IMG/VR virus record: IMGVR_UViG_3300031565_000009
DNA length: 64,000 bases
Strand: one strand, 5' to 3'
Source: a virus
Lineage: Duplodnaviria; Heunggongvirae; Uroviricota; Caudoviricetes
Positions 13,482-14,110 of this stretch are shown piece after piece. Made by a program: the position numbers and the translations under genes. Position 1 is the first letter of the stretch. The number at the start of each line of letters is the position of its first letter. The notes under the pieces were generated by a model that saw only the letters and a list, made by a program, of their open reading frames with translations, made no database searches and had not been told where the DNA came from.

Positions 13482-13554
13482 AGCCGGCGATCGGACTTGA
13501 ACCGACAACCGGCTGATTACAAATCAGCAGCCCTGCCAATTGGGCTACGCCGGC
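13482..13554 (-). tRNA. tRNA-Thr(UGU)
   Basis: Folds canonically by hand: acceptor GCCGGCG/CGCCGGC, D-arm GCCC-AATTGGCA-GGGC, anticodon loop TTTGTAA, T-arm GTCGG-TTCAAGT-CCGAT. Confidence 0.75.
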
Positions 13555-13558
13555 AAGA

Positions 13559-13632
13559 GTTGCGGGGCGGGGATCGAACCCGCGACCTTCAGATTATAGG
13601 CCTGACAAGCTACCGACTGCTCCACCCCGCAA
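13559..13632 (-). tRNA. tRNA-like, noncanonical (possible anticodon UAU, or a pseudo-tRNA)
   Basis: Canonical T-arm GCGGG-TTCGATC-CCCGC and D-arm GAGC-AGTCGGTA-GCTT. One extra nucleotide between the acceptor and D stems. Anticodon loop CCUAUAA has C at position 33. Confidence 0.4.
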
Positions 13633-13633
13633 G

Positions 13634-13705
13634 CTGTAGCGGCAGGACTCGAACCTGCAACCATCGGATTAACAGTCCGGTGCGCTACCGTTGCGCCACG
13701 CTACA
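13634..13705 (-). tRNA. tRNA-Asn(GUU)
   Basis: Acceptor TGTAGCG/CGCTACA, D-arm GCGC-AACGGTA-GCGC, anticodon loop CTGTTAA, T-arm GCAGG-TTCGAGT-CCTGC. Confidence 0.7.
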
Positions 13706-13721
13706 GTGACTTCCGTGTGTG

Positions 13722-13980
13722 GGCCGACTACTCTTCATCATCGTCGTCGTCGTCGTCGTCGTCGTCGTCGTCGTCGTCGTCGTCGTCGTCATCATCGTCC
13801 CAATCGTCGAGATCGTCATCGTCCCAATCGTCGTCCCAATCGTCGAGATCGTCGTCGAGATCGTCGTCGTCGAGATCGTCGTCGTCCCAATCATCATCGA
13901 GATCGTCGTCGTCGTCGTCGTCGTCGTCGTCGTCGTCGTCGTCGTCGTCATCGTCGAGCAGGTCTTCGGCCTCCTCGATC
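13722..13980. repeat. (GAC/GAT)n trinucleotide microsatellite, ~260 bp
   Basis: tcgtcgtcg... runs interspersed with ccaatcgtcgagatcgtc units. Confidence 0.9.
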
Positions 13981-14033
13981 ACGTCATCATCGAACACTTC
14001 ATCGCCAGTCGGGTCGAGTGATTTATCGCACAC
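13728..14033 (-). CDS. poly-aspartate hyper-acidic protein (about 80% D/E with periodic W/L)
   Basis: GTG start 5 nt after an AGGAGA SD. Promoter-like element 4 lies immediately upstream. N-terminus CDKSLDPTGDEVFDDDVIEEAEDLL is followed by D-runs. Confidence 0.45.
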   Translation of the reverse strand: MCDKSLDPTGDEVFDDDVIEEAEDLLDDDDDDDDDDDDDDDDDDLDDDWDDDDLDDDDLDDDLDDWDDDWDDDDLDDWDDDDDDDDDDDDDDDDDDDDDEE

Positions 14034-14062
14034 GAAAGTCTCCTGATGGAAAAGGGATAGGT

Positions 14063-14110
14063 CTCTACAGTAGTCGGGGTCAAAACCGTCCCAGCCGGCT
14101 CACGAATTTT
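14063..14110 (-). promoter_or_regulatory. phage promoter-like element copy 4 (variant CTACTGTAGAG)
   Basis: Plus strand reads ctctacagtagtcggggtcaaaaccgtcccagccggctcacg. Confidence 0.5.

Follow-up and report, generated by a model that had tools for sequence, protein, structure and literature searches.

A tRNA-linked family of hyperacidic, aromatic-containing small proteins in Planctomycetes phages: candidate disordered nucleic-acid decoys

Ocr (T7 gp0.3) and ArdA have a fold in which carboxylates on the surface follow the course of B-form DNA; acidic residues make up roughly 25-30% of each, and neither is of low complexity. Acidic mimicry is also attributed to a disordered region of the SPO1 protein Gp44, in which residues 56-122 are 57% Asp/Glu, contain no Lys, Arg, or His, and have been modelled as a single-stranded DNA (ssDNA) mimic; the region acts as an inhibitor of RNA polymerase (RNAP), whose beta/beta' subunits it is reported to bind (PMC8208478). 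[quoted passage not shown] Here we describe a hyperacidic open reading frame (ORF) encoding 101 amino acids (aa) on the minus strand of the IMG/VR virus record IMGVR_UViG_3300031565_000009, a stretch of 64,000 nucleotides (nt) that we refer to as a whole as the window. The ORF lies directly before three tRNA genes, is very probably a real gene, and belongs to a family of acidic-aromatic proteins for which we tentatively favour a role as disordered nucleic-acid decoys.

The predicted product contains 71 Asp, 6 Glu, 8 Leu, and 4 Trp, with a single residue each of Lys, Ser, Pro, Thr, Gly, Phe, Ile, Ala, and Cys and neither Arg nor His, and it has the layout MCDKSLDPTGDEVFDDDVIEEAEDLL-D18-L-DDDW...-D21-EE. 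Its acidic share by count is 76%, slightly lower than the approximately 80% given in an initial annotation of this DNA, and its net charge is about -76. The minus-strand ORF that was described there, with a GTG start 5 nt after a Shine-Dalgarno (SD) sequence AGGAGA, is indeed present (Table 1). The underlying DNA had been described as a GAC/GAT microsatellite of about 260 bp, but the array is not pure. TRF reports a period-3 array of 72 copies at 13741-13956 with 69% matches, and this is a composite of two GAY tracts, of 18 and 21 codons, around approximately 100 nt of higher-order units that are 9, 12, and 15 nt long (for example, GAT-CTC-GAC-GAC and GAT-TGG-GAC-GAC). The central units encode L-DDD-W-DDDD-L-DDDD-L-DDD-L-DD-W-DDD-W-DDDD-L-DD-W, and the product as a whole has Asp/Glu runs of 18 and 23 residues from residue 27 onward. 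Leu is encoded by CTC and Trp by TGG, codons that are two to three substitutions removed from GAC, and the apparent Leu/Trp periodicity results from tandem duplication of 9-15-nt units rather than from slippage or helix geometry. The repeated GAT-CTC (Asp-Leu) codon pairs also generate five GATC sites within 94 bp (13811-13904), a cluster that we considered as an origin, SeqA, or Dam signal and dropped because it is a product of these codon pairs; across the 64 kb there are 196 GATC sites, slightly above shuffled expectation, with no depletion. An identical 101-aa protein is called as a gene on six metagenome contigs, and the tract is therefore stable within a population.

Direct searches for homologues of the acidic protein gave no matches, including an exhaustive phmmer search of 1.84 billion representatives, in which the HMMER bias correction leaves zero matches. 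These nulls are uninformative about distribution, because the acidic proteins are absent from the clustered collection of 15 billion proteins. Relatives were reached through homologues of a putative phosphoesterase, contig look-ups, and a metagenome scan with the neighbouring 436-aa protein. The phosphoesterase homologues led to three syntenic contigs, two of which have a hyperacidic ORF directly before a tRNA-Asn gene, with the same GTG start and M-C-D beginning as the window protein. The metagenome scan added 80 loci, so that 84 related loci were compared in all. Hyperacidic ORFs are present in 20 of them, in every case within this interval and co-oriented with the adjacent genes, and none was found on the other strand or elsewhere in the 84 loci. 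All 20 members have an SD sequence (AGGAG, GGAG, or GAGG) 5-10 nt before an ATG or GTG, and all share a leader of the form CCTTTTCC...AGGAGAGAC...ATG/GTG.

The proteins are 35-128 aa long, with 49-80% Asp plus Glu, 2-13 aromatic residues, and 0-4 basic residues, and the hypervariable length that had been suggested for this protein is thus borne out among its relatives. Trp, Phe, Leu, and Tyr are spaced through the members such that an aromatic residue or Leu occurs every 3-7 positions, and a Trp pair near the C-terminus is found in most members and recurs across divergent ones. The longest Asp/Glu run is only 5-10 residues in 14 of the 20 proteins and at least 13 in the other six, and the first poly-Asp tract is missing from most orthologues. 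Because long runs are restricted to six members, the poly-Asp tracts are lineage-specific expansions that arose in an acidic-aromatic protein of older origin.

Four close pairs of loci illustrate how the gene changes. The ORF is 80-93% identical within pairs, compared to 94-99.5% for the upstream flank, and its insertions and deletions (indels) are all multiples of three (6, 18, 18, 6, 18, 6, and 18 nt), whereas the flanks contain 1-, 2-, and 5-nt indels. Out-of-frame length variation, which would have spoken against the initial interpretation, was therefore looked for and not seen. The ORF is present in 11 of the 20 loci of the phosphoesterase subclade and so is an accessory gene. It sits at a mosaic junction, with loci L037 and L040 being 99.5% identical upstream of it and 41% downstream, and several members have no promoter of their own and simply follow another gene. 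Syntenic orthologues with SD sequences and start codons, together with in-frame indels, make it highly probable that this is a genuine minus-strand gene, as first proposed, and we infer that it is translated.

The three tRNA genes reported downstream of the ORF are confirmed by ARAGORN, and all exceed the gathering score of 29 for Rfam family RF00005 (Table 1). The one previously noted as an odd tRNA-like gene is of tRNA-Ile(UAU) type, with C33 in the anticodon loop CCUAUAA and an imperfect acceptor stem; U at tRNA position 33 is near-universal. A tRNA gene is present in the interval in 9 of 11 loci with the acidic ORF and in 6 of 28 without it (Fisher p = 0.0009), and in the closer subclade in 9 of 11 with the ORF and 1 of 9 without it (p = 0.005), with kinship being ignored in both comparisons. 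The first tRNA is Asn-GUU in seven of nine scored loci with both ORF and tRNA, 11-65 nt after the ORF, while L018 has an atypical Asn-like tRNA 57 nt downstream and L029 a tRNA with a UUA anticodon 423 nt downstream. An independent IMG/VR contig, L094, has the same succession of an acidic ORF, a tRNA-Asn gene 7 nt later, a tRNA-Thr gene, and the phosphoesterase. In L048 and L057 a protein gene, not a tRNA gene, follows the acidic ORF. We propose from these distributions that the ORF has been gained and lost together with the tRNAs. The L029 tRNA (5080-5149) occupies the same slot and is ochre-suppressor-like, and tRNA-like genes in L018 (7099-7173) and L028 (7010-7083) have atypical anticodon loops and are unassignable by ARAGORN.

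A role for the tRNAs in translating the acidic ORF was ruled out, as the ORF has no AAC, AAT, ATA, or ACA codons. In a sample of 11 long phage genes, 6% of the Ile codons are ATA and 8% of the Thr codons are ACA; tRNA-Ile(UAU) and tRNA-Thr(UGU) thus read codons that are rare in the phage, unlike simple codon-usage compensation.

Upstream of the ORF there is a promoter-like element, the fourth copy in the window, which was initially placed about 35 nt away; the element is real, and its core (TTGACCCCGACTACTGTAGAG) ends 29 nt before the GTG. The core, TTGACCCCGACTnnTrTAGAG, has six exact matches in the window with 0 expected (100 shuffles), is invariant in an alignment of the five minus-strand copies, and has a conserved GTGAsCC 13-14 nt upstream. 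A start codon in the same orientation follows every one of the six copies within 12-65 nt, and we infer that the element serves as a promoter. Its spacing does not fit sigma-70, and scans for sigma-70-type promoters and intrinsic terminators at the ORF locus gave nothing above shuffled expectation. A promoter for a T7-like single-subunit RNAP was also suspected, as the core CGACTCTTATAGAG resembles T7/SP6 promoters, but no RNAP was found in the window, and an 890-aa ORF is a family-A DNA polymerase rather than an RNAP. The window does encode an extracytoplasmic function (ECF)-type sigma factor (Table 1), which is a plausible candidate for the reader of the repeated element; a repeated element before co-oriented genes together with a phage-encoded sigma factor is the arrangement expected of ECF-sigma-dependent phage promoters. 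In relatives L002, L003, and L004 the corresponding position has a variant core (TTTGGCACC...), and this suggests that the element co-evolves with a phage-encoded factor.

Extreme acidity with a regular hydrophobic periodicity had been regarded as the hallmark of mimics such as Ocr and ArdA, an assignment that is not supported. Single-sequence AlphaFold2 prediction gives a mean pLDDT of 57.1 and a pTM of 0.14 with no helices or strands, no Pfam or PHROGs family matches the window protein or four orthologues at E<=0.1, no PDB sequence matches it at E<=10, and the periodicity stems from the duplications described above. With no predicted fold and no match in these collections, we reject membership of the Ocr or ArdA groups. 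An amphipathic helix, considered because of the 3-5-residue hydrophobic spacing, is likewise unsupported by AlphaFold, and the protein is probably intrinsically disordered in vivo. It resembles Ocr and ArdA in being a small, very acidic phage product in a genome that also encodes DNA methyltransferase(s), and competitive blocking of DNA-binding enzymes is a plausible shared outcome. It differs in lacking a predicted fold or homology and in probably not being the first gene expressed.

The closer parallel is with SPO1 Gp44. Both proteins are phage-encoded, predicted to be disordered, and dominated by Asp/Glu (57% in Gp44 and 76% here), and the window protein shares with the Gp44 region an acidic content of at least ~55%, an almost complete lack of Lys, Arg, and His, no predicted structure, and internal repeats. 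In Gp44, however, the acidic region is one of three domains, whereas here it constitutes essentially the whole protein. For its activity Gp44 needs both an N-terminal domain that is folded and binds DNA and a region at the C-terminus; beyond its acidic chain the window protein has just a 26-residue N-terminal segment and lacks any further domain. The two show no sequence homology and belong to phages of different host lineages. The second parallel is with SSB tails (T7 gp2.5, T4 gp32, and the bacterial SSB C-terminus), which contact partner proteins at basic patches and likewise combine an unstructured acidic run with aromatic residues, the window protein having four Trp and one Phe among 77 acidic residues. 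A scan of IMG/VR for the pattern W-D(n)-W-D(n) identified 27 contigs, in which some of the matches are free-standing small ORFs and others are C-terminal tails of larger proteins. One of the latter belongs to a Gp2.5-like SSB of the IMG/VR phage L089 (PF10991, 3e-31; phrog_112, 2e-55), whose Trp-acidic C-terminal tail has the W-D(4-5)-W-D(n) motif of the window protein. The window protein differs from these tails in that the motif is free-standing and repeated many times with no OB fold attached, and in that it ends in ...DDDDEE with no C-terminal aromatic residue. Free-standing hyperacidic Trp-rich ORFs in IMG/VR include those in L105 (7675-7998 (-)), L111 (1201-1533 (-)), L115 (3357-3593 (+)), and L109 (1547-1786 (+); MCESKENEFDWEDDP...); no homologue of a neighbouring gene was found near these four in the short stretches examined.

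We tentatively favour the interpretation that the acidic protein is a disordered, polyanionic nucleic-acid mimic that acts as a decoy, although we stop short of calling this probable. The ORF would be the first cistron expressed from the phage-specific promoter-like element, in a unit running into the three tRNA genes and then the replication genes. Its product would be a disordered polyanion with one basic residue and a bulky Trp or Leu (Phe or Tyr in relatives) every 3-7 positions, and so might resemble ssDNA or an SSB tail. The chain of carboxylates could fill the basic nucleic-acid-binding groove of a target protein, with the aromatic and Leu side chains inserting where bases or a tail aromatic would stack, and this would sequester or inhibit the target. 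As candidates for the target we consider a DNA-targeting defence or restriction enzyme of the host, RNAP, a nucleoid protein, and an SSB. The accessory, fast-evolving distribution leads us to favour a host-directed target, and the phage appears to invest in defence evasion, as judged by its N6/N4 methyltransferase.

Several considerations weigh against this proposal. Profile and sequence searches found no homology to any characterised mimic, and the low pLDDT from single-sequence AlphaFold is weak evidence for disorder. If the promoter-like element depends on the ECF sigma factor of the phage, the gene would not be expressed immediate-early, a timing that is a poor fit to an Ocr-like, first-line anti-restriction role. 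No SSB was recognised among 20 neighbouring phage proteins in the window. Approximately 10 consecutive Asp/Glu residues destabilise translating ribosomes in E. coli (10.1101/2021.02.02.429294), and with runs of 18-23 the yield of full-length protein may be low. At the level of the gene itself, all four GAN codons are used in the family (577/176/118/143), with GA fixed, the wobble position free, and Asp and Glu interchanging; however, the antisense frame (V/I/F/L) of such GAN-rich DNA is open as well, and its changes too are 'conservative'. Taken by itself, the wobble pattern thus does not decide the matter, and it is the SD sequence, start codon, strand co-orientation, and family N-terminus that carry the case for a gene.

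The main rival is a role in the phage's own replisome, with the protein being a free-standing equivalent of the acidic-aromatic tail of Gp2.5/gp32-type SSBs that regulates the family-A polymerase, primase-helicase, or SSB of the phage through basic patches or an ssDNA cleft. The gene lies within a replication and nucleotide-metabolism module (polA, ligase, ParB, and SNF2), the identical motif type (WDDDDDWDDDDDDEV) forms the tail of the Gp2.5-like SSB in L089, and the gp2.5 tail binds T7 DNA polymerase and helicase. However, the ORF is missing from about half of the close relatives, in which these replication genes are nevertheless present, and it is therefore dispensable for replication, and the C-terminal aromatic residue needed for Gp2.5 function is missing from the ...DDDEE terminus of the window protein. 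With the lack of a recognisable SSB noted above, we consider this role unlikely.

The ribosome-destabilising potential of the tracts also raises the possibility of a cis-acting leader peptide, in which poly-Asp translation would abort (for example, at low Mg2+) and the uncoupling of translation from transcription would tune the downstream tRNA and replication genes, as MgtL does for mgtA. The position of the ORF, as first cistron after the promoter-like element and ending 22 nt before the tRNAs, would suit such a role, as would its co-occurrence with tRNAs and its 18- and 23-residue runs from residue 27, given that runs of ~10 residues abort translation, especially near the N-terminus. Like MgtL, it is an upstream Asp/Glu-rich ORF able in principle to abort translation, but it is much longer and is followed by tRNAs rather than a regulated transporter gene. 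The rest of the family fits poorly: in 14 of 20 members the longest runs are 5-10 residues, broken by bulky residues that counter destabilisation, and the acidic-aromatic composition is kept even where runs are short; several members lack their own promoter, the ORFs in L048 and L057 precede protein genes, and the retention of Trp and Phe and of the C-terminal Trp pair suggests selection on the peptide. A leader-peptide role is thus possible for the window version and does not explain the family; overall we regard it as improbable.

We are equally doubtful about a non-specific role as polyanionic buffer or chaperone, whether by chelation of Mg2+, Ca2+, or polyamines or by solubilising basic phage proteins. 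The extreme composition, the poor conservation of anything beyond composition, and the highly variable length would all be compatible with it, but ion chelation needs neither aromatic and Leu residues retained at 3-7-residue spacing nor a recurrent C-terminal Trp pair, and genes in an arms race more typically have the patchy, accessory distribution seen here.

A further reading extends the decoy proposal to the tRNAs. When Ocr triggers PARIS, phage tRNAs of the T5 type rescue the infection from its tRNase, AriB (PMC12409363, PMC11464382), and DNA mimics are over-represented among the known triggers of defence systems. By analogy, the acidic ORF and the tRNAs could form a two-layer counter-defence cassette, in which the polyanion would block host defences that sense DNA or ssDNA; should a PARIS-like or ssDNA-activated tRNase fire on detecting the mimic, the co-transcribed tRNA-Asn(GUU) along with tRNA-Thr(UGU) (Pro-UGG or Met-CAU in relatives) would replace the destroyed host tRNAs. 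Pro(UGG), a probable minor PARIS target, is indeed present in relatives. However, the window cluster differs from T5 in having no tRNA-Lys(UUU), and neither tRNA-Thr nor tRNA-Asn in the window has T5-type nuclease-evading substitutions (positions 39-41, compared with U36-A-A-U-C/A41) by the rule for E. coli AriB. At positions 36-41 tRNA-Thr has UAAUCA and tRNA-Asn has UAAUCC, as do the E. coli substrates, although the tRNAs and nuclease of the true host may differ. Because there is no tRNA-Lys, the UAAUC motif is kept, and tRNA-Asn also occurs in relatives without the acidic ORF, we assign this reading a low probability. If true, it would be the first operon packaging a mimic-type trigger with its tRNA antidote, and also the first anti-defence mimic to be fully disordered and of low complexity, with its origin in Planctomycetes phages, which are almost unstudied.

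The weakest alternative is that there is no functional protein gene, only a triplet-repeat expansion in a tRNA-operon leader or use of a different frame, such as the antisense one; several frames on either strand of GAN-rich DNA are open, triplet slippage keeps frame automatically, and in L003 the source gene caller chose an antisense Val/Ile-rich ORF (5137-5592 (-) vs 5296-5538 (+)), but this is very improbable given the SD and start codon in 20/20 members on the strand of their neighbours, the acidic-aromatic proteins with a related N-terminus in L004, L010, and L023 where there is no microsatellite, the absence of an SD sequence before the window antisense ORF, which starts inside the tRNA flank, and Leu (CTC) and Trp (TGG) codons that are not slippage products.

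The hyperacidic ORFs constitute a real and unusual gene family that is invisible to standard annotation; it plausibly represents a form of nucleic-acid mimicry by phages that is structure-free. Its members are missed systematically because HMMER returns zero matches, the proteins are absent from the clustered collection, and one gene caller chose the antisense strand; catalogues of anti-defence genes may therefore miss a whole class visible only to synteny or composition screens. If the decoy works, phage nucleic-acid mimicry needs no fold, and a free-standing low-complexity polyanion with aromatic residues would be enough. The linkage to tRNA-Asn and tRNA-Thr provides a testable bridge from mimic proteins to immunity that targets tRNAs, in a phylum about whose phages almost nothing is known, and the poly-Asp tracts offer a natural test case for how ribosomes handle extreme acidic nascent chains.

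Table 1. Features of the window discussed in the text.
Feature	Coordinates	Strand	Basis and remarks
Hyperacidic ORF, 101 aa	13728-14033	-	ORF list and composition; stop TAG at 13728-13730
GTG start of acidic ORF	14033-14031	-	Read from sequence
Shine-Dalgarno AGGAGA	14039-14044	-	Read from sequence; 5-nt spacer to GTG
First poly-Asp tract	13902-13955	-	18 GAY codons including pure (GAC)15
Central higher-order repeat region	13800-13901	-	9/12/15-nt units
Second poly-Asp tract	13737-13799	-	21 GAY codons including pure (GAC)16
tRNA-Asn (GUU)	13633-13705	-	ARAGORN; Rfam 69.7 bits; starts 22 nt after ORF stop
tRNA-Ile (UAU)-type	13559-13632	-	ARAGORN; Rfam 49.6 bits; alignment
tRNA-Thr (UGU)	13481-13554	-	ARAGORN; Rfam 66.1 bits
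Promoter-like element, copy 4	14056-14110	-	Core 14063-14083; upstream half GTGAGCC 14097-14103
Promoter-like cores	344-364, 5404-5424, 11358-11378, 14063-14083, 22830-22850	-	Exact match
Promoter-like core	60194-60214	+	Exact match
ECF-type sigma factor	6010-6642	-	PF07638, 25.1 bits (cut-off 21.1); phrog_351, 6e-09
polA	7898-10570		Family-A DNA polymerase; replication/nucleotide-metabolism module
247-aa ORF	14776-15519	-	Lipoprotein-like N-terminus (...ALTQFSC); between 436-aa gene and small ORFs
436-aa protein	15583-16893	-	N-terminal HTH; GDH...GNHG...GHHH motifs
Possible second methyltransferase	17069-17830		Sub-threshold D12 match only
N6/N4 DNA methyltransferase	17772-18497		1.3e-35

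The carrier of the ORF is a siphovirus-like phage or prophage of Planctomycetes. The window encodes a tape-measure protein, P22-type coat, gpA terminase, polA, ligase, SNF2, primase-helicase, and ParB, and it has no close relatives in INPHARED, by DNA or by phosphoesterase protein, or in IMG/VR, which was scanned with the phosphoesterase and with the promoter core. Of two orphan methyltransferases in the initial annotation, the N6/N4 enzyme is solid, but the second is not substantiated (Table 1). The motifs of the 436-aa protein suggest a metallophosphoesterase or nuclease, and it has no match to a Pfam catalytic domain. With 57-85% identity among over 200 metagenome loci and four metagenome-assembled genomes (MAGs) of Planctomycetes, it is a useful marker of this phage group. 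In one of these MAGs the gene lies inside a 2.6-Mb Pirellulales contig; its occurrence in the MAGs indicates that the hosts are Planctomycetes and that at least some of the relatives are prophages. The four MAG loci have the 436-aa gene with no acidic ORF and no tRNAs within 5 kb. The 247-aa ORF has no homologue in the 84 related loci and is therefore a lineage-specific insertion, possibly a superinfection-exclusion-type moron.

Repeat expansion into acidic or proline-rich linkers seems to be common in this genome. Further in-frame tandem repeats in coding regions, perfect or close to it, include (EPEPAA)x10 at 55616-56104 (-), a 12-aa PGDEEPIVVPEE unit present 4.4 times at the C-terminus of a trypsin-like protease (18561-19634 (-)), and a 21-aa unit present twice at 10395-10913 (-). 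Two adjacent genes in the structural region, at 44546-45559 and 45611-46348 (-), are paralogous; both products begin MARIELRDC..., and the genes share a 300-nt 5' portion that is 91% identical, after which they diverge.

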